Part shown: piece after piece, positions 4,593-60,045 of the stretch | How positions within the stretch are numbered: position 1 is the first letter of the stretch | Layout of the letters: each line of letters opens with the position of its first letter | From: Naegleria gruberi | Lineage: Eukaryota | Strand: one strand, 5' to 3' | NCBI GenBank assembly: GCA_000004985.1 | Contig: GG738869.1 | Length of the DNA stretch: 64,000 nt | Notes under the pieces: generated by a model | The model's database searches: none | Told to the model about the DNA's origin: nothing | Seen by the model: the letters and a program-made list of their open reading frames with translations, nothing else | Program-made: the position numbers and the translations under genes

Positions 4593-6163
4593 ATATAGGA
4601 CTATTTATTAGATCGGTTCTTTGTCAAATAAGCATTCTTGGTTTTTTAACAGCAAACAGTTCAGCAAAGTTCTTTTCCACAAGTTCATCAGTTTGAAGTT
4701 ATGGTCTTGTTTAGCCCTTGTTTTTGCTTCTTACTAACACGGTTAAGGAAGACTTGAATTTTCCTTTAAATCCGAAAGCATGAGGCAAAAATACATGATT
4801 TACAGTAGCATGAGGCAAAAATCAATCTTGTCTAAAATTCTTAATAAACATGAGCAAGAACATGATTTGATTAATGGCAATTAACGCACAACCCTGAATT
4901 GTTTCATTTTCTCAATTGCTCAATTCAGTCAATCTCTTCATAAATTAGATCTACAACATTTGACATCAACTAACATCAAACTCAATATCACAAGACATTA
5001 TCTCTAATACATTGAACAAGATTCAAAACATTGTAGTTCTTTCAAAAAAACTTCAAGAATCATTGTATACACTACAATGGAGTGCATGTTGTCAACTCTT
5101 ATATCTCACAAATATATGGAGGACATTTTTTCAGTTCCATTTTTGTAACATTTAGCAACAAACTAATTGAATTCACAATAGAGACTTCATGTCGTCATTC
5201 TTCACGCCTTCAACATTCCCATTTAGGCAGCTTTCGTTTATTTACTTGTAGTGGAAGATTTAAATTGGATACTTGTGGCAAAGATCTGAAACACTGTTGT
5301 GTGATATCTTTGAAAACCATCCGCTCTTAGTTGGTGCTTTCTTCATTTTTAGAATTTTTGTAAATTCTCCTTGTCGAATAGATAAACGAAAGTCAAAAGA
5401 AACGATAGATATTTAATCTGAGGATTTCCTCTTACTACGATGATATCATAGATAGTCCAACATTCAAGATCTCTTGCATATTATCCTATTGACATTTATA
5501 TTACATGTGTGTTGTATTATGAGATGAGGAAAGGTACAAATTAACTAAATATCCTATTCGGTAAGGTGTGTATCGATTACGGTTATCTTCTTGTTTTGAT
5601 AAGAAACGAACCCTATGATGTCCAGACAATATATAGAATGTGTATCTCATTGTTTGCGTGAAACCCTTCGACTTGCTTATTAGAAAGTAAACGAAACAGT
5701 GATAAAAAACAAGGTTCATGAATGAAACAGGTGCCCACACAAAGGTTAATTATGGGGCATTTATCTAAAATAACATGAACGCCTTGTTGGAAATAAAAGA
5801 TAACAGGAAAATGTGCTGCCAAACGTCAAACATCTTTTCTCACGAAGAATGAGAAAATGCAAATTGGTAACACAAGCAGAACAATCATCACTAAACAAGA
5901 TTTAAATAAAAAGAACATAAACCTAAAGAACCTGTCAGCTGCCAACACATCAACAGTGAACCATCACAACATTTCATTGGATTACCAAAAGTTTATTGTC
6001 GACTAGTTTGTGATAATATCAGCCGAATTGAAATAACATCAAAGTCTTTGACATATTCTGACATTGTTTCTAATCTCGCAACCTAAACTTGTAAGATCCA
6101 AACAAAGACGTTTCTTCCTCCTCTGCATTCAAGTTATTAGAAATCAAACTTTAAAAAAAAGAG

Positions 6164-7687: not shown

Positions 7688-7691
7688 TTTG

Positions 7692-10571
7692 TTAGAGCAT
7701 ATCACTTTCAATATTGTTTTGTGCCGTTTCAACTTCGTCTTCAGTTAAATCTATTGAACCTTCAGTTAATTGGAATTTCTCAATATTTACAATGAGCTTT
7801 TTGATGCTTGCAGGAACAAATTTGTTTCCAAAAGCTTTGATACATAAATCCTCTGGGATTTCATTTCTTTCTCGTGGTTTAATTATGGATGGAATATCAT
7901 CAAGCAACTTGTCAAATATAACAGTCTTGTGAGCTTGAAGTTCCTTAACAGCTACATCCACCGATTCTCGGCAAACCAATCTGAAAATTTTGACTTGTTC
8001 CTTTTGATTTTTTCTGACTAATCTGCAAATTGCTTGGTCATCTTTGGCAAAGTTAAAGTCCAAATTGAATAATACAACATTGGTGGCCGTTGTAAGGTCA
8101 ATACCAACACCTCCCGCATTCTTACTAATAAGCAAAGTGTTGATAATTCCCCTATTGAATTGATTGATAATCTCTGCTCTCTTGGGAGATGATGTATCTC
8201 CTGTAAATACACCAATCTTGATTGTATTGTCTTTGCTCAACTCCTTAACAATGACAGAGTTGTAGCAAACTAACCCAGAAAATACGACAACCTTTTCCTT
8301 TTTACCTCCAACTATCCTAGAAACTAAGTTTTTCAAAATTTTCACTCTTGTAGAGCCGGTTAATTTGGGATGGCTTTCTTGAATATATTTCTTGAGGGTT
8401 GTTTGAAAACTCTCAGGTGTTACATCTTCATCGTTATATTCTTGTGAAAATTCTTCCAAATCTTTCTCATCTGATTCTTTCAAATAATCGACACAGTCGA
8501 GGCATAATCTCTGATAAAAGTATCTGGCAAAGTAACACTTAGTTCTGTATTTTTGAGAAATGAACTCGTAAATATCCTTCTCCTCTTTGCTCATTTTAAA
8601 TTCTATGATAATATCCTCTTTCTTTTTTGCAATCTCTTCCATTTCCTTGATATTAACTTTTCTATGAATCAATTCCTTAAAGTAATTGTAAAAGACTTCA
8701 GTTCTAGCAAGAACCTCTCTGTTTTCAATGTTTTTTCTATTTTTAGAGAAGAATTCTGTAAATGTGGAATTAAAACAACGCATCAACTTCCTCACATATG
8801 GGTTCTGAGGTTCTAAAAATCTTATCAACGTGAATATTTCAGCTATACTATTCTGTAATGGCGTACCAGTAACTAGTAATTTGATAGATTTGGAAAAGGA
8901 TGAGAAATGCTTGAATCTTTCAGATTCTGGATTTTTGATAACATGAGCTTCATCAATTACTAAAATATCAGCTTTCTTTAGATACAATGCCTCCTCAGGA
9001 CTATTTTTCAAAATATTCATACACCTGTCATAGGTCATTACCATCATTCTTCCTCCCTTATCGAATTCCAACATTTTGTCGTACATATTTTCATTGTCAT
9101 TCAATACTATAATTTCAGATAAAAATCCTCCAGAAGGAAAATGGTACATGTACTGTTTTGAAAAGTGATCAATATTTGATTTTGGAACAAGAACTAGATA
9201 TTTGAGTGATTTACCAATTTTGTTCTGAGAATATATTCTGTTGTAATTCTTCAATATCAATAGGACCGTAAGTGTTTTACCTAAACCCATAGAATGAGCT
9301 GTAACACGTTAGAATATTGTGTTAATTTCACACTTACCAATCAATAAGGATTTTCCTTGCATCATTCTATTAATGGCCGTTCTTAAACAATCAATTTGGT
9401 GATCCATGACGTAGTCCTGATACTCTAATTCATACTCTCCATGTTGCTTCTTGATAAAGGTGACTGATTCCTTAACCTCCTCGACAATATGTTGATTTTG
9501 AAGTGCCTCCTCTGCCAATTGTTCCTTAAGTTTTAATTTTTGTGCCTCCTGTTGCATCTTTTTGAAACCTTGTTCGTATTGTTGGCGTCTGAAGTGATAG
9601 GCAAGTTTTGTTTTGAACGCTACAACAACTGGAATCTCCCTTCTTGCATACATTCTCAAATATTCTCTGAACTTATTATTATTTTTTTCCATAATGCATT
9701 TTTCAATTTCATCAGCCAATGCTTGTTGCTTTTCATTGAGGATTACTGTTTTGATTATTCTTTCAGTTGGCTCTTCGTCACTCGTTATAACTTCCTCAAC
9801 ACCCTCATCATCAATGAAATCATTCATATCATTCTCTTCATCGACTGTTGGTGCTGATTTTCTCTTTCTGTTTGGTCTCGTATTCTTGTTCAAAGTAGCG
9901 TCCACTCTTTTCTTCTTTTTAACCACTTGCTTGTCAAATTCCTGTAAAGCCAATTGATGAATAATACTATCTCTAAGAGTGGTGTCTAATCCTTTGAAAT
10001 TCCCATTCAATGTATCTTTCAGTTTTAGTAATCTCTCCTCCAACCTTTGCCAATTATCATGAATATCTTCCTTGGTTTTGTCTTGACAAAACTCACGAAT
10101 TTCCTCATCAGTACATTGAAATCTTTTTACATAGTTTTCAATATACATCTGACACTCATCCACTACCTCATCATCATCATTCAATTCTTCTACAGAATAT
10201 TCAATAGCCTTGTCTTCAAAAAGTAATTCTGGGCCATCATCAGAGTCTTCCGAATCAACTTCCGAATCAAAATCATTCAAGTCAATAGAAGACTCATCCT
10301 CTTCATCATTCATATCTATTATATCACCTACATCATAGCTGGCTTCTTCCGATACATCAAATTCTGATGGGGAAATTGGAGGCCGATACATTGGGGCCTC
10401 ATTGTGTTGTTCCATTTTTTTAGAATTTGTTATTTTAGCAATTGAACTGGCTTTCCAAATATAATTGTTAAGAAACTGGTTTGTGTTTTCAATGTTTTGA
10501 TCAAAATTATGAGAATTAGAACAAATTTTCTTGTAAGTGTTGGGAATTCTCAAAGATAAAGTAGTCGGCAT
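7692..10571 (-). CDS. SNF2-family DNA-dependent ATPase (Rad54/ATRX/ARIP4-like), about 950 aa. Two exons joined across a 39-nt intron (about 9299..9337). The splice reconstitutes helicase motif I as ...SLLIAHSMGLGKT.
   Basis: Track ORFs 9309..10571 and 7692..9290 are in the same orientation. GTAAGT..ACAG intron between them. Motif I GLGKT, motif II LVIDEAHVIKN (DEAH box), helicase-C motifs (LLISKNAGGVGIDLTTATNVVLFNLDFN, QAICRLVR). Acidic Ser/Asp/Glu-rich N-terminal region. Confidence 0.8.
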
Positions 10572-11045
10572 TCAAGATACTGGTCGAGATTGAACCTTGG
10601 AATGTTCAATTTCATATTCGAACAAGTAGTATTACTTGGTGATCAACACAAACTCGAAATACAAACATTACTCAACCCGAAACAACAACTTTTTATCATA
10701 CAACCATTAAACCCCAACCGAATTAAAAACAACAAAAAACCTCCTCAACTATCATAGGCTTGATTTTACAGCTCTTTGAAATCTTGTAGCCAAAAATTTC
10801 ACCAACTTCCAAAAAAAACAAAACAGAAAAAATTTACAAGGGTGTATTCTTGCTAATTTCTCTCTTCACGTTTTTTTTTCTTCTCTCTCTCGATCGCATC
10901 CAAGAAGGAAGACACATTGTTATTAGTAGCGTCATTGCTTCATAGTCATTAATTGTGGGAACATACTTTGTATCATCAATAGGAAAATATTTTTCTTTTA
11001 AGAGCAAAGAAAGAGAAAATATACTACAAATTCCGAAGATCAAAG

Positions 11046-13336
11046 ATGGTGAAGGAAAAGTTAACTTTTACAAACCCTAAGAAGGCTAACACAAAAAAGC
11101 CTCAGCCAAAACAACAACAAGTTGGGCAAACTAAACAACCTGTTGCTGAGGAAGTAGCTGCTGAACAAGTTGTTACTACTCAACAACCTGTAGTTACCGA
11201 AGTTGAAGATTCTAACAATGAATTAATCAACAAAATCAACAAGGAAATTAGACAATATAGAAAACAAGTTGTAAAGCACAAAAAGCTTCATGAAGATGTA
11301 AGTCATTTACATAGCAAAGCCTTTTCTAAAATGTAATAGATTACCAATCAATTGGATTTTAATATTGCTATTCCGACAATCCCTTCCCACCTCAACAAGA
11401 AGGATCTTTCATTCGAAGAGATTTTACAAAGAAAGAATTTCGATGCTCAAATCGAAGAATCAAAGAAGAAGGAAAAACAATTGAAGGATATGATTGAAAT
11501 TTTAGATAATGAAAACAAATCATTGGAGGTTCTCGAAACTATTCAAAGTAGTATGAGTAAGATTTTCAATGAGGTATGTAGTAGACTTTTGATTCGGAAG
11601 TAATAGTCTAACAATTTTTCTAATAGCATGATTCACGTCAAACAAAACTTGAAAAGGACTTGAAACAATTGCAAAAGGATGTTAAACAAAAGGATCAACA
11701 ATTGGAGGAATTGAATCAAACTCTTAATCATACCAAATTCCAACTTTCTCTGCAAGTTAACAACAAGAAGGAAAATGTTTCAAAAATCACTAGCTTTGAA
11801 CAACAAATCAATGAACTTACTGAACAAAACACAAAACTCTTGAAACAAAACCAGGATGTGGAATCACTCAAAACTGAAATTACTCGTCTTCAATCTTTGA
11901 ATTCAAATTTATCCAAAACACTTGAGGATCAAAGACAACAATCTTCCCAACAATTAATGGTTCAACACAATGTGATAGAGGAACAAAAAAAGCTTCTCCA
12001 ACAAAAGGAAGAAACATTAATGTTCAACTTTTCCAGATTTAACCAAGTGAATACAGAATTAATGATGATCAAACAACAATTTACCGACCAAGACAAATTC
12101 ATCAAATTCCAACAACATCAAATTTCTCTCAAATCTGAGGAAAATAACTCTATCACAAAGGAGGTTAATTCATTGAAAGAGGAAAACTCTTCAGTTGTGA
12201 AAAAGAATCAAGACTTGTTGGACAATATCAAACAATTGGAAGAAAAGATTGCTAATTTGGAAAACTCTAACAAGCAATTATTAGATAAAATGCAAAGAGA
12301 TGAAAATGACCACAAACATTCTATACAACAACTCGAAGAACAATTAAAGCACAGACCAATTGTGACGTTCCCTGTAAAGTTTGAAGAGGATATAATTAAT
12401 GAAGCTTTGGACAAGAAGAGAACCAAGGATATTGTTCAACTTATTCAAGTTTTGAGTTTTTTCAATATTTCTAATCCAGACTCATTCGAAAGAAGATCCA
12501 TGTTCCTTTCAGACCAACTTTGTATTAGCCAAACTGGAAAACAAGTATCAATTTTGACTCACAACGATTTTGCAGCTGTAGATGCTCTTTCACGTTCCCT
12601 CTTTGGTCAACAACAAAATATTGATCAAGTGGAAAATTGTATTAATGATGGAGTAAGAAAATTAGAAAAAATTATTGCAAGATCTGAAGATGATTCAATT
12701 ATTGGAGTTTCATACAAGATTTTAGCAGAACAAATAAGAGAACTTGCCTCTTCGAGTATCTACCAATATGGCAAGACTTTGTATCCATACTTGGGTCAAG
12801 ATGAACATTCCTTGACTAGTAATTCTATTTTCAATACTAATGGTTATAATATTAGAATGGATGATGCAAATCAATCAAGCTCATCTCCAAAACTTAAGAG
12901 TAATTTTATTAATACTGACATTTCTTCCACAACTTCTGAAACTAAAAAATCCACCATAATTGAGAATAAGACATTTGAAGAAACTCCATCATCCAATATT
13001 AATGTCACATACGAGGTTCCATCTGAACAAACATCATGGAAATTGGAAGTTACAAACAACAATACAAATGTTGAATCCACAACACCAAGTGCTCCAATAG
13101 AAAGTGACATAATTAACACCTCACCTGCCAATCCAAATGTTGTCTCTACCACAGAAGATGAAAATTCAGTTCCTTCAGCTCCATCTCCTTCATTAGAACA
13201 ACAATCTGAAAATGGTGAAAATCTGACGAAGAAAAAGTTTACAAACAATTCCAGAGGTAGAGGAAGAGGAGGTTTTGTTCCAAATTCACGAGGCGGCCGT
13301 CAAAGAAAACTCTTTGTACGAACAGATAATAAATAA
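11046..13336 (+). CDS. Coiled-coil protein with basic N-terminus and C-terminal RGG/RG motif (NSRGRGRGGFVPNSRGGRQRK). Three exons. Introns at about 11298..11339 (42 nt, GTAAGT..TAATAG) and 11574..11626 (53 nt, GTATGT..TAATAG).
   Basis: Three track ORFs (11046..11336, 11352..11603, 11660..13336) join in frame through the two short introns. Long heptad-repeat regions and an RGG tail are seen in the translation. Confidence 0.6.
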
Positions 13337-13387
13337 ATATTGTAAAATTAAAGTTTTTCAATGTTTTAATTCCAATTATTTTTACAA

Positions 13388-13936
13388 TTATTTCTTATTT
13401 TTGATATTTTCACTCAACCATTCCAAACCTTCATTTATACCAATTCCATTCAGTGCAGATGTTTTAAATATTGTCCATGTTCTATTCTTTATCTTTGTTA
13501 AATTCAATTGTTCAGAAACTTCTTCAACACTCATAGCATTCTTGGCATCTTGTTTGTTAGCCATAATTAAAAGTATAGAGTCTTTCAACTCCTTTTCATC
13601 GAGCATTGCAAAAAGTTCTTCTTTAGCAATACCCATTCTTTCTCTATCACTTGAATCAACAACATAAATAATAGCATCTGTGTTTGCATAGTAACATCTC
13701 CAATATGGTCTAATCGATGTTTGACCTCCCAAGTCCCACACTTGGAATTTTATATTCTTGTATGTTATTGTTTCTACATTGAATCCGATTGTAGGTATTG
13801 TTGTAACAGCTTCTCCTACTTGTAATCGGTAGAGAATTGTTGTCTTACCAGCATTGTCTAATCCCAATATTAAAATACGCACTTCTTGTTCGCTATTAAA
13901 GAGTCCTCCAAATATTGAAGCAATTAAATTTCCCAT
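13388..13936 (-). CDS. arl1: ADP-ribosylation factor-like GTPase ARL1 (182 aa).
   Basis: [13 protein letters not shown] (myristoylation Gly2), G1 [19 protein letters not shown]. Near-colinear identity to ARL1 recalled from memory ([83 protein letters not shown]...IL...ANKQD). Confidence 0.9.
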
Positions 13937-14432
13937 GTTTTTGTTTTTTTAAGTTACAATATATTCCTAGTGATATGTATAGTCCTGATGATGATGAAGC
14001 AATAGTTTGTTATATATTATTCAGTCCAATTACTTTAAAAATCAACCTTCTCCTTTTTTTAAATTACTCTAATGTACACAACTTCCGTTATTATTAAAAT
14101 TTACAAGTACAGCTGCTGTCTACTATTGTATCCGAAAGATTAAGCTGTTATAACAAGTGGCAAGGTGTGTTTTAAAGCCAATTTTTTTATATTGAAAGGA
14201 ATTGATGAGTCATGAACAGATGATGATGACTTGGAGTTTATGAATAATAATAAAATATGACGTCATAATGGAAGGGAAATGGATTGTGATAAGATGATTC
14301 TCTTGATGGTAATGATAATAAGATAACCAAAAAGCACAGTATATTATTTTGATGAAGAATTTAAAAAACAATGATGAAGAAGTTTGCGTTAATTTCCAAA
14401 GAGCAAGAACAAAAAAATTCAACTAGTAAACT

Positions 14433-16149
14433 TTGAAAAAGCACACAATGTCCTCCCTATTGCCCAAAACACAGGAAGACCAACAAGCAACAATAGTAGT
14501 AGAATTGGAGGAGAAGAATAAATTGAAAAGAGTTTTGGATCAGGTAGAATCATCTTCATCAATAGAGGAAAAACCACTAGTCAGCAATAAGAAGAGAATT
14601 AAATTATTTGATGAAATTGAGAGTAAACAGGGTGTTTGTTGGCACTTTAGAAAGAAGGGATTTTGCAAATTGGGCTCTGAATGTAAATTCCGACATATTA
14701 AAGTGGATGATTATGGATTAATTATTGAAAATGATTTGTCATCTTCTAATAATTCATCATCTTTGGATAATAATTCAAATACAACATTAGGAAATAATTT
14801 AGAGGAACCTACATTATCATTAACAATAGAACCATCATCACTCTCTAATAGTACATCATTAAATGTTGAACAACCAAGGAGAAAACTTTGCTATTGGATT
14901 TCAAAGGCTAAAGAAACAAAATCAGCAACCTCAGCTTTACGAAGAACTTACGAAGAGAATGGATTTAATTTAATACTCTCCACTGATAATACCGAAACAG
15001 AGAATTATACAGCAGTTTTCTGGGGACATACCTTCCCTCATACTTCAGACCTTTGGAAAAAGTTGCCATCCTACACTTACATTAATCACTTCCCTAATTC
15101 ACACCACTTATCTAATAAGAGTTTGATGGCAATGAATTTTCAGGAAATATCTAAGGATAATTCCTCAATCAAATTCAAATCAGAGTTTATTCCTCATACA
15201 TTTTACTTTCCCTCACAAATTAATTTATTCTTCAATTATTTAAAGACTGAAAAGGATGATATTTGGATTATTAAACCACAAGGTTCAGGCGAAGGAAGAG
15301 GAATCAGATTATTTTCCAATTCTAAACAAATTTTACAGGAGGAATTTCCAACAATACCAACCTCAGAAATAGAGTCTGGGTTTGTCTCTGAGGAAACTTT
15401 GAAAAGGAAGGAGATTAGAAAACACAAGATTGTTGTTTGTAAATATGTAAGAAATCCATTGTTAATTAATGGTAAAAAATTCGATATGAGATTGTATGTT
15501 TTGGCTGTGGGATCCTTCGAAGGACCTTTCAACAACTCCACATAGAGCCTATCTCTATAAGGATGGTATTGTAAGATTGGCCAGCGAGGACTATACGGAA
15601 TCAGAGGAAACTCTCACTAATGCATTCATACACATTACTAACAATACTGTAAATGATAAGAAGAATCGTCCTCAACATGAAACAGCCAAGTCCCAATATG
15701 GATTCTTTTGTAATATGAATTTGAATGAATTGGAAGAATACTTCCAAAAGAACTCTTTGGATTACCAACTCTTCTGGGATAGACTCAAAAATCTAGTTTC
15801 AGAATCATTGAAAATGACAATATTTAACACTGAAAAACAAGATGATACATTCAAAGCCTGCTCATCGAAATGTTTTGAAATTTATGGATTTGATGTAATG
15901 ATAGACAAGAATTTGCAACCTTATTTATTGGAAGTTAACTCAATGCCTGACCTTTCTGCTGTCAGTAATACTAGCCACTTGGTATTAAACAAGGATTTCA
16001 CCATCAAATCTAAAATGCTTGTCAATGCCCTCAATCTCATTGGCATAACAATCGAGGATGAAAACACAGTCCTGAGCCGATTCATCAACATTTCAGATTA
16101 CAACACTGATGACTATCTCAATAATTTTGAGAAAATAATTTATCAATAA
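14433..16149 (+). CDS. Tubulin-tyrosine-ligase-like (TTL/TTLL family) protein with an N-terminal CCCH zinc finger (CWHFRKKGFCKLGSECKFRH). Apparent +/-1 frameshift around 15500..15545 inside the conserved RLYVL...YLYKDGIVRLAS block.
   Basis: Track ORFs 14433..15545 and 15496..16149 overlap by 50 nt in different frames. Together they give the TTL signature FDMRLYVLAVGS / AYLYKDGIVRLASEDYT and downstream ATP-grasp motifs (EVNSMPDLS). The only candidate GT..AG introns shift the frame wrongly. Confidence 0.65.
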
Positions 16150-16302
16150 TAACCAAACAATTTGAAATTTCAAATGAACCAAGACCTATTCAACTAGTAA
16201 TACCCAAAAGATATTTTACTCTCTGGTTTACGCTCTGAATCCAATCAGACATTCACTTTACAATGTCGCATCTGCACCAATTATTTTCCACTCATCAAAA
16301 AA

Positions 16303-17703
16303 ATGCACAAAATCAAAGGGCTAACATCTGCGTTGGGTGCAGTTTTGGTTTTATCCATCATCGCCTTCTTGAGTGTTCATGTTGATGCTTGTGGTCATCA
16401 TCGTCAACAACATCATAATGGATATCATCACCATCATCACCATCATCATGAAGAAAATCCAAAATCATCCGATAAGCCTGTATCTGCCCCACCAAAATCT
16501 GTTTGGGATAATTTGGAAAATATAATTACCAAGTCCATTGCTTCTCAAGCCTTCCCAGGAGCTGTCCTTTTGGTTGCTTCTAAAAATTCAGGAATAATTT
16601 ATTCTAATAGTTTTGGACATTTTACCTACAATCAACAATCATCACCAATGACCATCGGAAGTAAATTTGATATGGCATCCTGTACAAAGGTTTTGGCAAC
16701 AACATCTGCTACTGCATTGCTTTATCAAAAAGGATTGATTGGATTGAAGGATAGAGTTATTAAATATTATCCTGCATTTGCTGTTAATGGGAAGAGTGAA
16801 ATTATGATTGAAAATCTCTTATTGCACAATGCTGGTTTGCCACCAGATCCAAATCCTGGTTATTCTGCAACTCAATTTGGTTGTCCTGCTACTTCTGACT
16901 ATCATCCTCCTCAAGTTTTCACTTGTGCATCAAAGATTTTCAATTCTTGGTTGAATCAAGTTTTGGAAAATAAGCCAGGTCAAGTTTATGTCTACAGTGA
17001 TTTATCAATGATTTCAATGATGTACATTATTGGTAATGTTGTCAAGAAGAATATGGCCATGTTGGAAATGCATGAAGGAGATTTGAGAGTTGAATGTGTT
17101 CAACAAGTTGGTGGAATAGATGCTCCAGGTCATGAAACTTGCTATTATGAAGCTTTTGTTAATAAGCATGTTTTACAAAATCTCCAAATGACAAAGAGTG
17201 GATTCATTCCAAAACCAGAAGAAAAATCCAACATTCCACCAACCTGGTTGGATACTACCTATAGACACGAACTCATTCAAGGTTATGTCTCTGACGAAAA
17301 TGGTTATGCTTTGGGTGGTATTGCTGGTCATGCTGGGTTATTCACTCCAGTTGTTGACGTCTATCGTTTGATGAATGAACTCATGTTCAGAGCTAGAGGA
17401 AACTTTATCAATGAAACCACTTTCGACATGTTTACAACAGTTAAGAATACCACTCAAAGTTCAAGAGCTTTGGGATGGGATACTAATTCTCAAGGAAATG
17501 GAACATGTGGTAGTTTATCAAAGAAGACATTCTTGCATTTAGGATTCACTGGTACCCAAGTTTGTGGTGATCCAGATAGAAATTTATTCACCGTCTTTTT
17601 AACCAACAGAGTTTATCCAGATAAGGATAACAACAAGATGGCTCCAGTAAGAAATGCTGTCAACTCTGAAATTCAACGAGTATTCGATCAATATTATCAT
17701 TAA
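16303..17703 (+). CDS. Beta-lactamase-family serine hydrolase (466 aa). Signal peptide followed by a histidine-rich tract (HHNGYHHHHHHHHEE).
   Basis: SxxK active-site motif (MASCTKV) in the expected position of class-C beta-lactamase / DD-peptidase-like proteins. N-terminal hydrophobic leader. Confidence 0.75.
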   Translation: MHKIKGLTSALGAVLVLSIIAFLSVHVDACGHHRQQHHNGYHHHHHHHHEENPKSSDKPVSAPPKSVWDNLENIITKSIASQAFPGAVLLVASKNSGIIYSNSFGHFTYNQQSSPMTIGSKFDMASCTKVLATTSATALLYQKGLIGLKDRVIKYYPAFAVNGKSEIMIENLLLHNAGLPPDPNPGYSATQFGCPATSDYHPPQVFTCASKIFNSWLNQVLENKPGQVYVYSDLSMISMMYIIGNVVKKNMAMLEMHEGDLRVECVQQVGGIDAPGHETCYYEAFVNKHVLQNLQMTKSGFIPKPEEKSNIPPTWLDTTYRHELIQGYVSDENGYALGGIAGHAGLFTPVVDVYRLMNELMFRARGNFINETTFDMFTTVKNTTQSSRALGWDTNSQGNGTCGSLSKKTFLHLGFTGTQVCGDPDRNLFTVFLTNRVYPDKDNNKMAPVRNAVNSEIQRVFDQYYH

Positions 17704-50012: not shown

Positions 50013-51199
50013 AAGTTTTTTCAAAAAACTGCTGTACTGATTTTTTTCAATATTCCCTAAAGCTCCTCACCTAAAGCAATAATAAGGACTTTGTGAGCGG
50101 ATTTTGAATGATATTGGAGCAAAATTTGTCGTGCCCAACTCAATTTTCCATCACTACAAGATATTAATCACCGCGTTTCATTTTGCTTTTTGTAATAAAA
50201 GTTGTAAAGTTATGACGTTGGATAGCTTTATAGAAAAAAATACCATCACCAACTGACAAACCAAAAATTATTACCTCCCAACAATAATTAGTAACATCAC
50301 ATCCTACCTCGTCTCTTAGGTTGAGTTCTTTTATAAGAAAGTTCTTTTCATGTAGAGGTGTTTTATAATTATTCCAAAATTGAAGTAATTGTTTTACTAC
50401 GAGGTAAACTCACAACAAATTCTCAAGGAGATGATGTTGTGTTTTGGGATGTAATGTTTCTTATTATGTCAGAAAACATCTAGTAAGGAATGATTTATTT
50501 AGAAGAAGAACAACAACAATATTTAGAAGATATAAAACCATCACTGTGGGCTGATGATTTTCAGCAATAATTTAGAGAGACCAAACAAAAAATGATTTAA
50601 TATTGCAACATACAAACACACCACTTCAGCACCAACAGCAAGTAATCGTCTATGGAAAACTTCATCAAAGAGGGTCTCCTTTTTTTCATCACTAAATTCT
50701 ATTGATGAAGCATCATGACTATATCCGAGGATTGTGAAACAACAACCAACAGCAGGCTTTTACGATGATTCCGCACATTTGAATGAAGTATTAGTTTAGA
50801 TCAACTGGTACTGAAAAGGAGAAAAAGTATGCTGCTTGTTTGGCTCCTACCTCATCACTTGCTGTTGCTTTTTGTTATTTACTCCTGAATGCGTTGCTAT
50901 CTTATATATGATTGTGATGTGTTTAATTAATAAGTTGGAGTGGGAGCAGCAACAGGGTAATAAATGTAAGTACCTACGATTTATTTGAAATTTTACCTTA
51001 ATTCCATTTCATAATTGACACCATGGAACATTTAAGGTGAAATCTTCACCAAAATAATAATTTGAAATAGTCAGTTTTGGAAAATGATGTCAGAGAATTT
51101 GATATTTATGAGTGTAATCTTTTCACATTTCAATTTGGTTGGTGCTATACATTCCATCATCAAGACTTAAGGTCCTGCCATTAATTAGAAACTGTGATG

Positions 51200-52110
51200 C
51201 AAGAAATAGTAACTGTTGTTGATGGAACTGTTTTAGAAGATTTAGCAAGTATTAATGTTGTCTACACAACAGCAACTGTTGCCATCTAAATCCTTACAAC
51301 TCTGAAGGTGAATTCATTTTGAAATATGATCCTCCAAGGGAAACTATGTTCATTCTCACTGATTAAAAGCTGATTTTACCGTTTGATTTGAGTGTAGACA
51401 TTTACAATAGATGATTCTCTTACACATACAGAGGTGAAAGAGATGCACTGATGATGTTCTTTCAACTCTTCAGTTTTGACTCAAGTCAAATTGTCTATTC
51501 AGTGGAAGGTATGGATGAGTTATCTATATAGTAGACACTTATAACTTTAGAATTAGAAAGCTATCAATTACCAATAAGACTATCATATTTATTACTTATC
51601 GGTGGACAAGAAGAAGGAAAACTTTGGAAATGAATATTACTGATACTCTTGCTCAACCAACAGGACTTGCTTTTTTCAGAATTCTGAACATGCTTCAATT
51701 AACACCATTCCATATACATTGCCTACAAGTTTTACATCAAGATTGTCAATGATCTTACAATAATTGCAAGATCTAGTGCTCCACCAACTCCAGGTCTGAG
51801 TTAGCAGCTCCTGTTCCTACTCTCAATACAACTATTGCCCCAACAAGTATTGCAGTTGGTGAGGATGGAAAAGTAACACACCCTCAAAATGTTAACACCT
51901 GCTCCAACCTGAACAATTTTTGTCGTGGCTAATACTGGATAATATCGGTCCTATTGAGGATGATGGCTTGGCTATTAGTTCTTCATTTATTACTGTTTCC
52001 TCTGAGGAGATTATTCTTGCTGATTGTATGAACAATAGAATTAGAAAGATTTGTGGAGAGGGAGTCATTACTACCAGTGGCTAATGCCTATGACTAAGAG
52101 AGATGTTTGA
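51200..52110 (+). pseudogene. Decayed NHL-repeat gene fragments, for example LADCMNNRIRKICGEGVITTSG and PTIAPTSIAVGEDGKVTHPQNVNTC, interrupted by stops and frameshifts.
   Basis: NHL-like motifs (aD..NnRIRKI...G.ITT.aG) recur in several frames. No continuous ORF. Related in motif to the intact NHL gene at 62615..64000. Confidence 0.3.
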
Positions 52111-53329
52111 AAGTAATTGACCTAACCTTTCATTTTGCGTATTGTATGGAATGAAATGTCTCTAGTCAAAGAAGTGTTTTTGAGAATTGTGAATAGTGCT
52201 TCAGTGATCGTTTGGGCTCTTGTTGATGGTAAGGAAATGAGTAGAGATATCAAAAAGATTGCATATGATTTTGCCTTCTTTACTATTGATGTTTCACAAG
52301 TTTGCCAAGGAATTGTAGTCATTCAAGTTATGTTAATATTCGTAAAAAAATTGAGAAAATGACTCTTTGCCACCTTGCTGATTTTCGAAGTGGTTTCTCA
52401 GCACCAAACTTTCACATCATCATCTAAACATCAATTTAGTAGTAATATAGTAATTTTTATTGGAGTATTTTCTTCATTATTTTGGAATTTATCTTCATGA
52501 TGAAAAATCACAAGTTGATGAATCATCAGAACATTATTGTTGTTTTCCATCAATATAATAATTTTATTTGTGGAAATTAATATATAGTAATGAAATTACA
52601 CTAAAATCTTCATCACCGTTGGATTTAATGGAAAAGTTGGAAAACTATTAATGTGGCATTGTTGGAAATGGACAATAGTATGATATAAAACTTTGTTTGA
52701 TCACTTTTCATCAAGTATTGATAGAGATAGGTACATGTGAATTTTGAAAACTAACATGAACATTACTCCATGTGTACTTCAACCAACTTGAATACAATCT
52801 TATAGAACTACTAGTACTATTTAAATCACGAATAAACACCATATTCATCATCAAATATTCGTCATCTTGTCGATTACGGAATTTCATTCCACCAGTGTTG
52901 ATTCGGGCCCAACAACAAAATATTAACAATAAAACAATTACCAATACTATTGTTTACATGTTTTATGTTAAATGATCGTAACGATCATCAAGATCATCCT
53001 GTTTTTATTGCATTTCTCATGATAATCAGAAATGTCACAGAGAGTGCCACATATCCATTCTACTCTCAATAAATAATAGTTCCTTTTTACACATGTGCAA
53101 CTTTGCTTATAAACATGATGAATTCATATATTAAAGACTCCAAAGGCTAGTATAATCCTCAATGTGATGTCTAATAATACCATTACAACTTAAAGATAAT
53201 TATCTTATAATTTCATTGAATATGAATTGAATTTGTAAATTGACATAAAACAGTGGTTTATTGTAATTTGGTTTAAAAATAGCTTTCTAAAGCACCTTGT
53301 TGTATCTTGTTGTGACATTTACTAAAAAA

Positions 53330-54385
53330 ATGGCAAAAGCACCAGCACAAATTGTTATGGAGAACAAATTGCGGAAATCATTAACATTAAAACAATTCAT
53401 AGAATTATCCAAGTCTACAAGAAAAAGGAGATTAGATAATCTTCGTAAGAAATTCTTTAATTCAAATTTATTTAAATATTCTTGGAGTAAATGGCGAGAT
53501 GCTATTATCGGAACAAACAATTCAATCCAATATTTATTAAAACAAAGAAAAAACATAAAAAATAATTTATCAACATCTACAATTGATACAATAATTCAAC
53601 AATTAAAAGAGGAAAGGAACAAATCTACAAAAAAAGAATCCAAAAAAGATTTTGAAAAAAAAATTAATAATTTATTACAATCTAAAAATTTATTCAAAAT
53701 CAATGTTAATTTGATATTATGTAGTAATTTGGCTAATACTATTCAACTAATGTTTTTAAGAAATATACTTCCCGAAAATACCACTACTGAGGTAACCAAT
53801 ATATTGGATAAAATTAACCAAAGAAGATCAAAGGAAAATTATTATATAGGAAGTTGGGGAAAGAGTTCTTCTTTTCTATTTAAAACTAATGACACTATTT
53901 TTAATGAATTATCTTCTCAATTTATTAAAATTATTAATTTATTAAAAAATTATGTTTTGGAAATATTGAAATTTGGAAATAACAAGATGAGGAAATTCTT
54001 AGAAAAATACAATAGTAGTGATTTTTTATCAATTTATCCGACAGTGTGTTTTAATTTTTTGGATAAATCTGTAGATGAAAATAGAATTCTACATATTCAT
54101 CCGGATAAGGAAGACACTGGAACTAGTCTAATTTTTTACTTTGGAAAGTTTAAAGGTGGAGCAATCTCATTTCCTGAATTAAATTTTAAGCTTATGGTTC
54201 AATCAGCAGATGTTTTATTGTTTGATGGTAAGAATAATTTACATGCTGTTGAATCACTTCATGGTAAAGATGATGTTAGATATTCCGTTGTATTCTTTGC
54301 TCATAAAGCAGACTTGGGTAAAACTAGTTATCCCATGAATAGAGGAGAAGTTATGAAAGGTATTAAGAATAAAATCAATAATTAA
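53330..54385 (+). CDS. Tet/JBP-family 2-oxoglutarate/Fe(II)-dependent dioxygenase (5-methylcytosine oxidase type). Small single-domain NgTet1-like form, about 350 aa.
   Basis: C-terminal core: HIHPDKEDTGTSLIFYFGKFKGGAISFPELNFKLMVQSADVLLFDGKNNLHAVESLHGKDDVRYSVVFFAHK. It aligns motif-for-motif with my recollection of the Naegleria NgTet1 core: HxD iron ligands, SL.FYFG.F, VQ..DVL.F.G, the second His (HAV/HVV), and R..V.FAHK for 2OG binding. The N-terminal half is extremely K/N/I-rich. Track ORF 53297..54385; first ATG at 53330. Confidence 0.75.
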   Translation: MAKAPAQIVMENKLRKSLTLKQFIELSKSTRKRRLDNLRKKFFNSNLFKYSWSKWRDAIIGTNNSIQYLLKQRKNIKNNLSTSTIDTIIQQLKEERNKSTKKESKKDFEKKINNLLQSKNLFKINVNLILCSNLANTIQLMFLRNILPENTTTEVTNILDKINQRRSKENYYIGSWGKSSSFLFKTNDTIFNELSSQFIKIINLLKNYVLEILKFGNNKMRKFLEKYNSSDFLSIYPTVCFNFLDKSVDENRILHIHPDKEDTGTSLIFYFGKFKGGAISFPELNFKLMVQSADVLLFDGKNNLHAVESLHGKDDVRYSVVFFAHKADLGKTSYPMNRGEVMKGIKNKINN

Positions 54386-56134
54386 ATTTTAAATAATTAT
54401 TTAAATAATTTTTATAAATAATTTAATTGTATTAAAAAAATGTCTCCACACTTTAACCTCGAATTTTATTCGAGAAGCACAACAGTAATAGATGAAAGCA
54501 CTCTCGGTGGGCTTGATTTGATAATAACACACTTATACATCCTCTTGTAGGAGTATAATTAGTGTTGTTGTTGTGAGTTGAGGACGTTATTTTAATTCCT
54601 TTTCCCTTCTTCCAAAGTTTCCTGTTCAAACTTTGTTGCTTCCGTAAATCATATTATCAACAGGAAAGATCATTTAACTGCGAGCATCGTTGTTGGATAC
54701 AAACTATGCATTGACAATTCTTTTAATTATCTTGAATGTTTGGTAATTGATGGCAATGTTCATATAATCAACTCTCACCAAAGAAGAATTCTAAAATATA
54801 TCTAATGATCAGGCTGTTGATTTTCAACAACATACAGGTATTCGGAGCTATTGTAAAATAATTGTTTTACTTTGATGATTCAAATGGTTTTCAACAACTA
54901 ACATAATTCTTATCCATCTTGCAAAAAAAGAGGATACCATGACAGCAATCAACTTATATCAATATTGAAAAATCATTAGGAAATTATTCAGAAGTAGCAT
55001 GCATTGTAATTGTTGCGTTCAAAACATTTCTCAACATTAAATTCTTTCTCCACAATCAAACCCTGCTCAGCAACAATCAGAAGAGGAGCCATCTTTTAAT
55101 CTAACTTGCCATCTATGTTGAAGGAATGTACATTTAGAAATCAGTGATGTTCACCCTGAATGTGATGGATCTTTTTCTGGCTACTTGTATTGGTTGCTCC
55201 AGTAATTGCACATATGGAGGCTCTTTTAATGTTTCCAATAACCAAACTATGCTGGTGATTCCACTCCCAACCAAAACCCTATCAAAAAGAATTCTTCTAT
55301 ACAACTAGTATGAGTCATAGAGCTGTTGTCTTTCGTCCACTTTTAATAATAATATATGGTATGCTTTTGTTCAGGCTGTAATGTTTCGAGTGCAATTCAA
55401 CACCAGTGTTTTCATTCCAACCATGATTGGATCATATCTCCAAAGAGGACACTGGGTATTATTACTATTTAAAGTTGGCTACTAATAGTGAAATCTACTT
55501 GTTCGATCCAATGTTGGATGCCAAGTTCACTAGTGCTGAGCTGGCTATTGATATTTCAGATATCCTTTTTGTTTGTTGTCACTACCACCCTATTATTCAA
55601 CTTCTAGGTTTACGTTTCAAGAATCATGGGTTTATTTGGTTTAAGATGTTATGTTTCAGTATTCACGTAAATATGATGCAAGGAGGACACTTATTGCTGC
55701 TGTGGTGGTAATAGTAGCATTACCTTAGGTGTTGTAGTGTATACTACTTCATCATCTATTAATACTTATTCTCCAATTACTCAAACAAAGACAATTTCAA
55801 TCAACATTCACTATGTCAGTGCTTAATTATTCCAAGTTGTACTAAAACAACATCACTAACAAGGTGCTAAACAACTATGCTTTCCATTTCAACGCAGAGG
55901 CATATGTCTTGCGTTTGGGGCAGAGATTTAGTGCTTGAATAGTGGTTAAACAACAATGGATGGGCATTTTGGCAACTGGTTTTCAGTAGCTTCACATTCA
56001 TGTTGTTTGACTTAACAAACACTTTGGCTGCAATCTATTCACTCTTTATCCATCATTTATTCATCATTTACACCAATACTGTATTGTTTACATTTTGTAT
56101 GCTAGCTGGTTATTATTATTAATCATTAAAAAAA

Positions 56135-58864
56135 ATGGGAGTAGCGACACTTTTTACCAAAGCTGACGTTTTAAATTCCCACAACATCAAAAAGCAAAAA
56201 GAAACCAAACGTCCTGCCTTTGAAGGTGATAATGATAGATCGATTGTGGCGGCAATTAAAAAAACAAAACAACAAGCATCCAACGACTTTGAGTATTACA
56301 AGACATACAAAGAAACAGATTTCACTAATGAACAGAATTTTAGTTCAATAATTTATCAGATAATGCTAGTTCTATTGCCCTATTTTGTTTTTAAAATAAC
56401 CTCAGGATTATTAGATTTTGAATCAATATTATTATACTTTCTAGTCTCCACAAAAAAAGGCAAAGATTTATTAGCACAAGCCAATCTATATAGTACTGAG
56501 GGTGTTTCTTGGTGTGAAGCAATAGTATTTAAAGCAATTTGTAATGCAGATATAAGTATAGGGAGTTATGGTAGATTTATTGGTTGTTTAGAAGAATCTA
56601 GTAAATCAGACACATCCAGAAATAAGAAAAAGGCAAGACATTTTTTACCATCACTCTCTACAATAACAAAATATTCAAGTAGTTTACATCAAGTATTAGA
56701 TATCAATCATGCTGCAGATAGCGAAGGACTTTATTGGAGAATATTTTGTTCATCCATAGAACTTAATGACAGGACATTCAGATATGCAACGCTTCAAAAT
56801 GCAGAATTGTTTTTATTCTCATTTATTCGCTACCATGAAATGATCATAGGAGAATATATCTTCTTTGTAAAGATAAGATGTACTGTTGATGGTTCACCTT
56901 TAGAGGGAGCCTGTACTGCGTATGATATTGTATTAATTCATCCCAAGATAGATCCATTTTGTGCTCGTAATTATATTTCTGTTATTATTGCCGAGCCTAA
57001 AGAGGAAATAGCGTTCAAATTAAACATCTGGGATTTCTCTCGCCAGTTAATGCGTATCACACAGTTGAAATACTCTGTACCTAATGAAGAAACAAGAATT
57101 ATTCCTGTAAAATTTATTACCAACCCTGATAAGGGCGCCTTTAACAAAATTATAGATGTGGAAAAGGTAACGCCAATTTGTGATCCTATTTTTAATTTGG
57201 TAAATCTTTATTGCCTATTATCAATGATTTTCAATACAGATAATTCCTTAATACTACCTCTAATTCCAACAATAAGAGGAGATTGTAATAATGATAGCAA
57301 CAAAGCAAAAGGACAAGCAAATCTAGCAAAGGTTATGGAAATTAAAAAGATTATGCCTGAAACGTTACCTTATTACCACAACATTCCAACAAAATCCCAA
57401 ATATTTACTGATTTTCAATTAGATGAAGATTCTATTTTTTTAATTGAAAAATTTATCATTAAGAAACCTCAAACAGATTATTTATGTTGTATGTTTTGTT
57501 ATTTAACTAAACAAACAAAAAGAATAGCATTGAAGTATCCTGATTTGTGTACATGGAAATGGTACAGATCAAACGAAAGCTCAAGTAATGCTTTAGGCTG
57601 GCCTTTTAAAAGTTTTTCATGGTGTCTTTCGCATGATATAAGAGCCTGTGGTCAGAATCTTATTGAAGAAGAGGTGGGACAAATTGAAGAAGATAGACAA
57701 TATTTTGCCAAATTATTCAGTTCTGAATCTCCAATTGCCTCTTTGAAATGTGGTTCTAAAAAGCTAATTAATGAACAACTAGATGCCAACCTTGTTTCTG
57801 AATTTGAGTTTTGTCAATGGAGTGTATTTGAATTAAAGGTGAAAGAAGAAAAAAAGAAAAACAAAACAGGAACAGAGCTACGAACTAGTTCAGTTAAACT
57901 AATCTATGATCAGATTTTGTTTAAACAAATAGACAAAATTATAATGACAATAGATGTTTGGTATCCTCATTGGCTCACATATCGAGAAAACAAACAATTA
58001 CAGGTTTGTCAATCCCTTAACAATAATCAATCATTTGAAGATTGTACAAATGAAGAACACTCCAAGCGAGGAACATACAAACCAAAAAACTATGAACATA
58101 TATGGAAAGCTCTTCAAAAAACATACATTACTCTTCGCCAACCAAAATCTAAATGGTTAGAATGGAAGAAAACTGGATATCAAGAGCCATTGCTAATATT
58201 TAAGAATTTAAATAAGGTTTGGATAAAAGATATTTTAGGAAGAATATCAGAATATTTACACATTCATCAACATGCAGATATTGTGTTCGATGAAGTAGAA
58301 GAATCATTCGTAACAACATCAAACATTGGATCTGAATCTAAAAATTCTTTAAGAAGGAAGCGTCATGTTTCATTTGGAGTTAATGGTGGTTTAAGACATC
58401 CTTGTGATGATTCTTTATATTATGACAGCAAAAGAATTCTTAATGAATTGAAGATCCTTGCTGAGACTCCTAATATTATTGCAAGACAAGATGAGATCAA
58501 AAGAAAACAAGTTTCCGAAAAAGAAAAACTCACACAACCAAAAAAGAAAAGAAAATCTGAAACTACTACACAACCCAATCCAATAAGCTCAACCAATTCC
58601 TCAATTAATTATATCAATCCTTCCCTATTACAACCTCTACTTCCAGATAATTTTAATTCAATTACATTACACAATCAACACTCCTTCTCACCTCCTATAT
58701 ATATTCATCCTCTTCAACTCCAACCTCCACTAACTAACAATTTAACATTTTCTCAATTCAATCCTTCTCAAAATTCCAATAACCAACCAACATCTCCTTA
58801 CCAACCATCATCTCCATTTTCATTCTTTTCATCCTCCAATCCATCACCAAACTCCTTTTTATAA
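56135..58864 (+). CDS. Orphan 909-aa protein immediately downstream of the Tet/JBP gene. Cys/His-containing central region (CCMFCYLTKQ...CTWKWY...SWCLSHD...C), then a Q/N/P/S-rich low-complexity C-terminus. Unknown function.
   Basis: Single uninterrupted ORF in an otherwise ORF-free 9-kb stretch. No recognisable catalytic motif by eye. Confidence 0.45.
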   Translation: MGVATLFTKADVLNSHNIKKQKETKRPAFEGDNDRSIVAAIKKTKQQASNDFEYYKTYKETDFTNEQNFSSIIYQIMLVLLPYFVFKITSGLLDFESILLYFLVSTKKGKDLLAQANLYSTEGVSWCEAIVFKAICNADISIGSYGRFIGCLEESSKSDTSRNKKKARHFLPSLSTITKYSSSLHQVLDINHAADSEGLYWRIFCSSIELNDRTFRYATLQNAELFLFSFIRYHEMIIGEYIFFVKIRCTVDGSPLEGACTAYDIVLIHPKIDPFCARNYISVIIAEPKEEIAFKLNIWDFSRQLMRITQLKYSVPNEETRIIPVKFITNPDKGAFNKIIDVEKVTPICDPIFNLVNLYCLLSMIFNTDNSLILPLIPTIRGDCNNDSNKAKGQANLAKVMEIKKIMPETLPYYHNIPTKSQIFTDFQLDEDSIFLIEKFIIKKPQTDYLCCMFCYLTKQTKRIALKYPDLCTWKWYRSNESSSNALGWPFKSFSWCLSHDIRACGQNLIEEEVGQIEEDRQYFAKLFSSESPIASLKCGSKKLINEQLDANLVSEFEFCQWSVFELKVKEEKKKNKTGTELRTSSVKLIYDQILFKQIDKIIMTIDVWYPHWLTYRENKQLQVCQSLNNNQSFEDCTNEEHSKRGTYKPKNYEHIWKALQKTYITLRQPKSKWLEWKKTGYQEPLLIFKNLNKVWIKDILGRISEYLHIHQHADIVFDEVEESFVTTSNIGSESKNSLRRKRHVSFGVNGGLRHPCDDSLYYDSKRILNELKILAETPNIIARQDEIKRKQVSEKEKLTQPKKKRKSETTTQPNPISSTNSSINYINPSLLQPLLPDNFNSITLHNQHSFSPPIYIHPLQLQPPLTNNLTFSQFNPSQNSNNQPTSPYQPSSPFSFFSSSNPSPNSFL

Positions 58865-58897
58865 AATAAAAGGAATAATTTAAATTATAATAATTGT

Positions 58898-59659
58898 TTA
58901 ATATTTATTCCATTTAACAGATTCATCAAGCATAGAGCAGAAATAATCAAATTCAATTCTAATCATCTTCTCTTCAGGTTTGTAAATTAATTTAAATTGA
59001 TTAATTCCAAATTTCCATAAAATACCATCATGCTCCCATTTAAATGCATACCACTTATCACTAAACAAAGGAGGAAGGCTATAATTTCCAGCAAACAACC
59101 AATGATATGTTATCTTTGGAACTATTCTTCCTTCCCTTGCAATGCCACCCTCAATCAACATCTCTTCTTTTAAAATGCTATATGGTTTTGCCTTTTGTAT
59201 TTGATAATCAAAGAATAGCTTTGCTTCGTGATCATCTGTTACAGAAACATAATGTTGATGATGCCACTTGACATTATGGGTTGTATCTGGCTGAGCATTT
59301 CTAATAACTACCTCCTCAATAGTTCTCGGAAGTACCTTTAGGTATCTTGTTGCATAATATTCATCAGAATATTTTTCATCCATTATCTCACGCAGTGTTA
59401 TTGTTGGTAGGGAAGTATCAAAAAAGTATTCAAGTTGTTGTCTTTTCTCTAATGGTATGTTCACTTTCTTACTCTCTTCACTGCCTTCAAGAATGTTTGT
59501 TACTTGGCGTTTAGCTGTTTTCAAATCATCAACCTTCTCTACAACAAAACGTATTTTGTTTGTATTGTTATTCTTCTCCAACGATTTATTCATAGCTACC
59601 CTCTTACTTTTGCTCAACCTGTATACTTCAAACGTTACTTCTGTTTTGTTGGTGACCAT
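58898..59659 (-). CDS. Hypothetical 253-aa globular protein, unknown family.
   Basis: Single ORF with balanced composition (for example WYAFKWEHDGILWKFGINQFKLIYKPEEKMIRIEFDY). Stop is only about 34 bp from the stop of the 909-aa ORF, in convergent orientation. Confidence 0.45.
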   Translation of the reverse strand: MVTNKTEVTFEVYRLSKSKRVAMNKSLEKNNNTNKIRFVVEKVDDLKTAKRQVTNILEGSEESKKVNIPLEKRQQLEYFFDTSLPTITLREIMDEKYSDEYYATRYLKVLPRTIEEVVIRNAQPDTTHNVKWHHQHYVSVTDDHEAKLFFDYQIQKAKPYSILKEEMLIEGGIAREGRIVPKITYHWLFAGNYSLPPLFSDKWYAFKWEHDGILWKFGINQFKLIYKPEEKMIRIEFDYFCSMLDESVKWNKY

Positions 59660-60045
59660 AGAAAATACTTGTTTGTTTTGTTTTGATTTTGTTGTTGCTC
59701 ATGTTGTTGTTGATATGTGGTGTTGTTGATGTTATTGTATTTTTTTTTACGTGAGTTTACAAATTGAAAAACAAGCAAGAATGAAACGCGGTGAAATTAC
59801 GATCAGGATTTGAAAAAATATCAAAAAAGACGTTACATAACAAACAAACCTCGTAACCGATCATCAACACTTGTACAACTTGACTCTTAACAAGTATTGT
59901 TGTTGTGGGAAGATTTTAATCTTCGTAACAAACTTCATCATCATCCGACTTTTTTAAAAACTCTCTTATCATCATCAACAAGAAGTGATTTTGTACTAGT
60001 ATTGTATTTTGGTAGTTTAATTATAATACAAGAAGATTAACCATC

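Follow-up and report, generated by a model that had tools for sequence, protein, structure and literature searches.

A Tet/JBP gene and a putative RAG1/Transib/CACTA-type transposase within a probable DNA transposon of Naegleria gruberi

Introduction

What does the 909-codon open reading frame (ORF) downstream of a Tet/JBP-like dioxygenase gene in Naegleria gruberi encode, and what ties the two genes together? Both lie in a 64,000-nucleotide stretch of contig GG738869.1 (NCBI GenBank assembly GCA_000004985.1), hereinafter the window, whose numbering is used for all N. gruberi coordinates below. The locus comparisons, sequence searches and structural modeling reported here make it likely that this frame, which we call ORF-B, encodes the transposase of an approximately 9.6-kb, Tet-carrying cut-and-paste DNA transposon of the RAG1/Transib/CACTA (CMCT) type that also carries a further gene, ORF-A. 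A DNA transposon with a Tet gene is already known as a general kind; what is new here is the heterolobosean (Discoba) host, a transposase family invisible to current profile libraries, and the conserved ORF-A partner.

ORF-B and Tet lie between one pair of terminal inverted repeats

ORF-B occupies positions 56135–58864 on the plus strand as an uninterrupted frame of 909 amino acids (aa) with an ATG start. The probability of 909 stop-free codons at the local base composition is about 1.6 × 10–32, and we therefore take it to be a real coding sequence. An earlier note on this DNA, made from the letters alone, had described a long ORF without recognizable domains, 1.7 kb downstream of Tet on the same strand, with a Cys/His-bearing middle section and a Q/N/P/S-rich tail. 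This description holds: the coordinates are exact, ORF-B matches zero Pfam families at E≤0.1 and zero PDB sequences at E≤1, the gap from the Tet stop to the ORF-B start is 1,749 bp with both genes on the plus strand, 9 of the 21 cysteines fall within residues 451–560, and the low-complexity tail (residues 800–909) is 66% P/S/N/Q/T, as against 26% in the body. Two other parts of the same description fared less well. The compositional island in which it placed both genes is weak, the element having 31.3% GC and its flanks 34.2%, with only the Tet gene clearly AT-rich (25.2% GC); and the label of orphan falls away, as ORF-B has a heterolobosean family (see below). The gene appears to be missing from the N. 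gruberi annotation, because an exhaustive HMMER search across 1.84 billion representatives did not turn up a full-length protein of N. gruberi for it, a look-up of its exact product came back empty, and word-indexed searches with ORF-B and with the family alignment gave zero matches; these last searches missed the known family members too, probably through low-complexity words saturating the candidates. The window holds no paralogue of ORF-B.

The element that encloses ORF-B is delimited by a perfect 14-bp terminal inverted repeat (TIR). Its left copy, 5′-CACCGCGTTTCATT, lies at 50169–50182 on the plus strand, and its exact inverted copy lies at 59780–59793 on the minus strand, where the plus strand reads ...AATGAAACGCGGTG. 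These are the only two matches to the repeat in the window, both exact and in inverted orientation; from base frequencies, the chance of one exact reverse-complement copy of such a 14-mer is about 10–4. The similarity between the two ends runs on with gaps to about 44 bp, with a score that 0 of 500 shuffles reached. The termini read 5′-CAC...GTG-3′ and so have the CA..TG ends of CMCT-type elements, as do those of the Willaertia element described below. The element thus spans 50169–59793 (9,625 bp) and comprises, in order, a 3.1-kb ORF-poor arm, the Tet gene, a 1.75-kb spacer, ORF-B and ORF-A. Other inverted repeats in the window, such as 52910/59697 (CAACAACAAAAT), were rejected as low-complexity.

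Contigs from a second sample (ERR1078381) provide evidence that this unit has moved. Two of them, L007 and L008, are 99.2–99.3% identical to the window, and the match ends at 59793 in L007 and at 59796 in L008, where the BLAST alignment extends three bases further. Past this terminus, both run into sequence unrelated to the window and to one another; therefore, the right terminus abuts three different flanks (window, L007 and L008). A third contig, L006, is an internally deleted copy that keeps 55862–56030 and parts of 57942–58924 at 85–96% identity, lacks about 1.9 kb of ORF-B, and resembles a non-autonomous derivative. The case for mobility is made by the three flanks at this right end and the deletion in L006, together with two flanks at the left end of the Willaertia element. 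We did not recover a second full-length Tet-bearing copy, and exact look-ups of the Brix protein, Tet and ORF-B, aimed at an unoccupied insertion site or another left flank, found no record.

ORF-B belongs to a dispersed heterolobosean family

The exhaustive search retrieved seven relatives of ORF-B at about 25% identity, namely, proteins from N. fowleri and N. lovaniensis, three from Willaertia magna, and two environmental fragments, plus one near-identical fragment. All five relatives whose source can be traced are from Heterolobosea, the other two being unattributed JGI metagenome proteins. Despite the low identity, the family alignment (A1) shows sharp conserved blocks. Scans of metagenomes with the ORF-B protein and with the TIR pattern gave chance matches only.

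A parallel to the N. gruberi element comes from Willaertia, where two copies at different loci (L003 and L005) share about 5.2 kb at 98.5–99.2% nucleotide identity. This repeat has a sharp left edge starting CACGGGGTGGT, with a different flank in each locus. The exact reverse complement of these 11 bases occurs once downstream in L003, at 17027–17037, such that the element reads CACGGGGTGGT ... ACCACCCCGTG; the chance of an inverted copy of a fixed 11-mer within 10 kb is at most about 2 × 10–3. Inverted-repeat pairs of this kind are informative only where one end is fixed independently, and a blind search around the N. lovaniensis, N. fowleri and Willaertia L004 copies yielded chance-level 11-mers only. 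The L003 element so defined (9004–17037; 8,034 bp) encloses ORF-A, ORF-B, 3.5 kb of broken ORFs, and a Tet/JBP gene with HKD...H motifs (15884–16957), which ends 70 bp before the right repeat and 80 bp before the end of the element. Hence, in both the N. gruberi window and Willaertia L003, Tet lies between the same TIRs as the putative transposase gene. Downstream of ORF-B, at 12602–14148 of L003 and in the equivalent part of L005, there are several overlapping broken ORFs, which may represent a decayed additional cargo gene; this region has no similarity to the arms of the N. gruberi element.

The N. fowleri copy (L002; VFQX01000066.1) has lost its N-terminus and is split by a frame break that leaves the C-terminal motif out of frame past the annotated stop: the family motif NVDTECIH...NGGCGYDDFEDLFVRELK is found at 11480–11700 in another frame after the stop of FDP41_009065, and what is annotated as a 468-aa N. 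fowleri protein is therefore only part of a copy with a frameshift. In N. lovaniensis, the model C9374_012882 (1159 aa; L001 10001–13765, PYSW02000061.1) fuses two ORFs through a predicted intron, with the ORF-A homologue at 10001–10729 and the ORF-B homologue at 10781–13765. The latter bears two N-terminal fungal-type Zn2Cys6 clusters (Pfam Zn_clus, 2.1 × 10–12), which the N. gruberi protein lacks. No neighboring genes are conserved between the family loci, and the overall distribution fits a dispersed, decaying repeat family, unlike a housekeeping orthologue.

Conserved residues and the predicted fold point to a CMCT-type transposase

The alignment of the family brings out a series of residues that recall the signature of CMCT-type transposases. 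D252 (in the context hhh-DG) and D332 (PD[ML]G) are invariant in all five members covering those positions, as is E734 (SE[SG]) in five of five; these are the candidate catalytic residues. C452xxC455 is kept in the five members that cover the site, and H709xxxH713 is seen as H(3)H or H(4)H in five of six, making C452, C455, H709 and H713 candidate zinc ligands. The spacing from H713 to E734 is 21 residues, comparable to the 20 between H942 and E962 of mouse RAG1 (the sequence of RAG1 593–1010 was verified against PDB 9jpu_A). The CMCT-type proposal was made from the motifs ahead of any structure search, at that point with E511, which follows C497xxH500, as the third acidic residue; E511 was later replaced by E734, after H709xxxH713, which better fits both the CMCT signature and the register of the hhalign comparison. 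In its single local alignment, itself short of significance, hhalign places DYxHI..H opposite NYFHKTLAH of RAG1 and GSESKN opposite GNESGN, thereby setting H709, H713 and E734 against H937, H942 and E962.

A low-confidence AlphaFold2 model built from a seven-sequence alignment is consistent with these assignments. Around D252 and D332, it predicts a strand-strand-strand-helix-strand arrangement, with D252 four residues after the first strand and D332 directly after the fourth, and it puts E734 at the start of a helix. The model matches the RAG1/Transib/CACTA-type fold best, with predicted similarity to RAG1, RAG1L and Transib. ORF-B thus presents a putative DDE triad on an RNase-H-like core together with the C(2)C/H-H motif of CMCT-type transposases, from which a catalytic activity may be inferred. 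Because the motif signature, the fold ranking and the element termini converge, the RAG1/Transib-like assignment is well supported, while not proven by sequence statistics.

ORF-A and Tet, the companions of ORF-B

ORF-A (58898–59659, minus strand) encodes a putative 253-aa accessory protein, with its ATG 134 bp inside the right terminus. In N. gruberi it stands tail-to-tail with ORF-B, 33 bp separating the two stop codons; this order is peculiar to N. gruberi, the genes being head-to-tail elsewhere (Willaertia and N. lovaniensis). By tblastx, ORF-A homologues lie directly upstream of the ORF-B homologue in Willaertia L003, L005 and L004 and in N. lovaniensis L001. The pairing is therefore present in five of six loci and constitutes a conserved two-gene module; no ORF-A was detected beside the N. 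fowleri copy. Within the protein, one stretch of about 100 aa is conserved. ORF-A has no relative in Pfam or the PDB, and contigs L007 and L008 of the second sample (ERR1078381) encode an identical protein.

The cargo gene (53330–54385, plus strand; frame open from 53297, first ATG at 53330) codes for a Tet/JBP-like 2OG-Fe(II) dioxygenase that corresponds to NAEGRDRAFT_79850 at 100% identity. It matches the NgTet1 structures 4LT5 (5 × 10–21) and 5CG8 (3 × 10–21); the Pfam Tet_JBP match is partial and stays below the gathering cut-off (E=3.4 × 10–5; 23.6 bits versus 34.9). The HxD (IHPD), distal H (HAVE) and R (VRYS) motifs are readable, and to judge from its sequence this Tet is intact in its catalytic motifs. 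The public NAEGRDRAFT_79850 protein has 211 aa, or 61% of the 347 aa queried, and the genomic frame gives 351 aa from the ATG at 53330; the gene model looks shortened. The gene also forms the most AT-rich kilobase of the window (24–25% GC).

Alternative explanations

Several results weigh against taking ORF-B for a transposase and its locus for a Tet-bearing transposon. None of the seven family members matched Transposase_21, Plavaka, RAG1 or any other transposase model in Pfam at E≤10, the sole matches being Zn_clus (N. lovaniensis) and the chance-level DUF7781 (E=0.038) and Utp14 (E=3.1). The A2 and A4 profiles did not retrieve RAG1 from PDB sequences, and the hhalign comparison of the family with RAG1 593–1010 is not significant (E=0.16, probability <1%). 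The AlphaFold2 model has a mean predicted local distance difference test score (pLDDT) of 48, below 50 in the catalytic C-terminal part (the model from a single sequence, at 35, was unusable), and the Foldseek check that the earlier note had proposed, run against the PDB, returned zero significant matches; the weak ones lean to RNase-H-like folds (the Hsp70 nucleotide-binding domain, PIWI, RNase HII/H3 and UvrC) and are not counted as evidence. As for the element, the window shows no clean target-site duplication (flanks ending TTAAT and beginning AAATT; AAT/AAA), and the Willaertia flanks (ending CTATT and beginning TTTCA) show a possible 2-bp TT duplication that could arise by chance in AT-rich DNA. 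The N. gruberi left terminus is placed by the inverted repeat alone, for want of a second left flank. Two near-identical copies differ by 10 substitutions, 6 of them non-synonymous and 4 synonymous, which is no demonstration of purifying selection. Finally, a Tet gene is found within 10 kb of a family gene at two of six loci only, and the truncated Willaertia L005 copy is without one; the constant physical partner of ORF-B is ORF-A and not Tet, a refinement of the idea in the earlier note that ORF-B might be a partner of Tet.

The failure of every sequence-based test of transposase homology, the low-confidence model and the empty Foldseek result would also suit a locus that is mobile or formerly mobile, in which ORF-B plays an accessory part, binding DNA or zinc or acting as a regulator, and movement depends on ORF-A or on another enzyme supplied in trans. 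The N. lovaniensis member, with its Zn2Cys6 DNA-binding clusters like those of transcription factors, lends this some color, yet we hold it to be unlikely, since it does not account for the combined evidence of motifs, fold and termini as well as a transposase does, and the same is true of the other alternatives. Domestication has a still smaller probability in our estimation: here, ORF-B would be a transposase-derived host gene, for example, a lineage-specific DNA-binding factor working with Tet, and the inverted repeats would be relics. The single copies of N. fowleri and N. lovaniensis among ordinary genes, annotated as such, the gain of Zn2Cys6 clusters in N. lovaniensis, and a 6:4 ratio of non-synonymous to synonymous changes compatible with some constraint all fit such a history. 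However, the N. gruberi inverted repeats are intact and perfect over 14 bp, with a terminus that has three flanks; other copies occur elsewhere, one of them 99.3% identical and one internally deleted; the Willaertia copies are 98.5–99.2% identical at different loci; the N. fowleri copy is frame-shifted and truncated, with no ORF-A detected beside it; and the loci have no conserved neighbors. This also bears on the refuting result that the earlier note had named, homology to a housekeeping family with orthologues at non-Tet loci: the homologues at non-Tet loci are dispersed and partly decayed copies.

The least probable of the alternatives, in our view, is that ORF-B is a transposase of another Tet-associated superfamily, for instance KDZ (Kyakuja/Dileera/Zisupton) or a hAT/Mutator-like group with a C(2)H motif, rather than of the CMCT type. 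KDZ transposases are the classical partners of Tet, and Kyakuja ends are likewise 5′-CA..TG-3′. The family also keeps C497xxH500 followed by the acidic E511, an arrangement resembling the [C/D](2)H motif of hAT and Mutator that Yuan and Wessler reportedly described in 2011. The seven family members, when searched against Pfam at E≤10, matched neither a KDZ transposase nor the associated CxC domains. Taken together, ORF-B and Tet within one TIR pair, a terminus with three flanks, the transposase motifs and predicted fold, and the Willaertia parallel favor a CMCT-type transposase and agree with the other option in the earlier note, that of an element-encoded protein.

A proposed mechanism

In the mechanism that we propose, the RNase-H-like core of ORF-B would carry D252, D332 and E734 as its DDE triad, and a large helical insertion would be held by a C452/C455/H709/H713 zinc site, in the way that the ZnC2/ZnH2 modules act in RAG1. 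ORF-B, probably together with ORF-A, would bind the CAC-terminated inverted repeats, excise the element by DDE-catalyzed cleavage, and reinsert it elsewhere. The cargo Tet would oxidize 5-methylcytosine (5mC) (or T) on or near the element, thereby countering the marking of repeats with 5mC by the host. Catalysis, zinc binding, the role of ORF-A and the anti-silencing role of Tet are what we infer for this system. Repeats and young transposable elements are the places where 5mC concentrates in N. gruberi, and 5-hydroxymethylcytosine (5hmC) was not detected genome-wide (PMC12344493); both observations are compatible with a local, element-serving function of Tet.

A broader proposal is offered only tentatively, as a possibility that we would not bet on: the ORF-A/ORF-B pair may be an unrecognized, deeply diverged RAG1/Transib-like lineage in Discoba, whose transposase needs a dedicated partner (with ORF-A as the functional analogue of RAG2 or TnpA), and in which Tet was independently recruited or anciently retained as an anti-methylation weapon; at least some of the well-known Tet-like genes of Naegleria would in that case travel as cargo of transposons instead of regulating the host epigenome. 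If this were so, Tet genes as transposon cargo would help explain why genome-wide 5hmC has not been detected in N. gruberi.

Relationship to known transposons and significance

DNA transposons carrying TET/JBP in fungi were reportedly described by Iyer and co-workers in 2014. Fungal TET+ elements with CMCT-type transposases comprise EnSpm, ESTA and Plavaka elements carrying TET/JBP (Kojima, 2025, PMC12730594). Like these, the N. gruberi element is a TIR-bounded cut-and-paste unit with 5′-CA(C)...(G)TG-3′ ends, and some of the fungal elements also encode a third protein, as seen here. Unlike them, it resides in a heterolobosean (Discoba), its ORF-B is invisible to the Pfam Transposase_21, Plavaka and RAG1 models, it has a conserved ORF-A of about 250 aa, no clean target-site duplication was seen, and the gene order varies between genera. 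With respect to Transib, RAG1 and ProtoRAG RAG1L (PDB 6PQN, 4WWX and 6B40), ORF-B shows no significant sequence similarity (hhalign, as above), and about 120 residues separate its second D from the C(2)C motif, as against 19 in RAG1. No 5-bp target-site duplication of the Transib/RAG1 kind was seen, and the Willaertia and N. lovaniensis genes run head-to-tail. ORF-A, at 253 aa and with no recognizable Kelch-propeller repeat, is not a demonstrable counterpart of RAG2. The combination of a CMC-type transposase, a second element protein and CAC termini recalls CACTA/En-Spm with its TnpA and TnpD; the differences are that ORF-B has no Transposase_21 or DUF4218 match, that no subterminal repeat arrays were detected, and that the ORF-A and ORF-B proteins each have an ORF of their own instead of arising by alternative splicing. 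RepeatModeler labels 38 N. lovaniensis repeats CMC-EnSpm (PMC6125883), which may or may not belong to the ORF-B family, so that CMC-like repeats have a precedent in Naegleria.

The documented cases of Tet/JBP genes in DNA transposons are to date fungal (PMC12730594), and the literature that we searched, which did not include the 2014 papers of Iyer et al. and Hashimoto et al., contains no paper tying Naegleria Tet genes to a transposon or to CMC-like repeats. If our interpretation is correct, the association of Tet with transposons reaches Discoba, very far from fungi, and points to an old or repeatedly invented transposon strategy against silencing by 5mC. It would also give a concrete hypothesis for the in vivo role of the Naegleria Tet-like enzymes, given that 5hmC was undetected (PMC12344493), and add a very divergent RAG1/Transib-like lineage from an early-branching eukaryote, a lineage relevant to where the RAG/Transib fold occurs and how it arose. 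At the level of annotation, the analysis flags the missing 909-aa N. gruberi gene, the shortened Tet model, and the N. lovaniensis model that fuses two ORFs.

Neighboring genes and non-coding parts of the loci

The neighboring ORFs are ordinary eukaryotic genes (Brix, WD40 and class-3 lipase). The element is flanked by the Brix and lipase genes, with its left TIR 157 bp beyond the stop of the Brix-domain gene. Its 3.1-kb left arm (50183–53329), which is non-coding or contains decayed cargo, has no ORF longer than 77 aa inside it, an 89-aa ORF straddling its right edge; it has no Rfam match, and tblastx against the related loci finds nothing. The 1.75-kb spacer between Tet and ORF-B (54386–56134) has ORFs of at most 94 aa. 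At least its last 270 bp are conserved in the deleted copy L006 (of which 1–182 aligns to 55862–56030), and on account of this conservation the spacer is the probable site of the transposase gene's promoter and 5′ region. The stretches 50013–53296 and 54386–56134 are without ORFs longer than 94 aa in an otherwise gene-dense genome, and both are assigned to the element; neither matches Rfam, and no tRNA or rRNA gene surfaced in the searches of the window, which did not include a dedicated tRNA scan.

Some repeats of lesser compass were also observed. A 28-bp tandem repeat, TTGTTGTTGATTGTGGTGTTGCTCATG, is present in 2.3 copies at 59678–59738, in the interval that separates the right TIR from the ORF-A start codon; the window and L007 differ here by a single copy (a 6-bp TGTTGT indel). 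In Willaertia, a 122-bp stretch at 5030–5147 of L003 and 16973–17094 of L004 is 95% identical, in opposite orientation and at unrelated loci, and is likely to be a further short interspersed repeat. In L004, directly upstream of the ORF-A homologue at about 5800–8200, 9–10-nucleotide poly-A probes match at hundreds of positions over about 2.4 kb, which points to a long A/T-rich low-complexity sequence.

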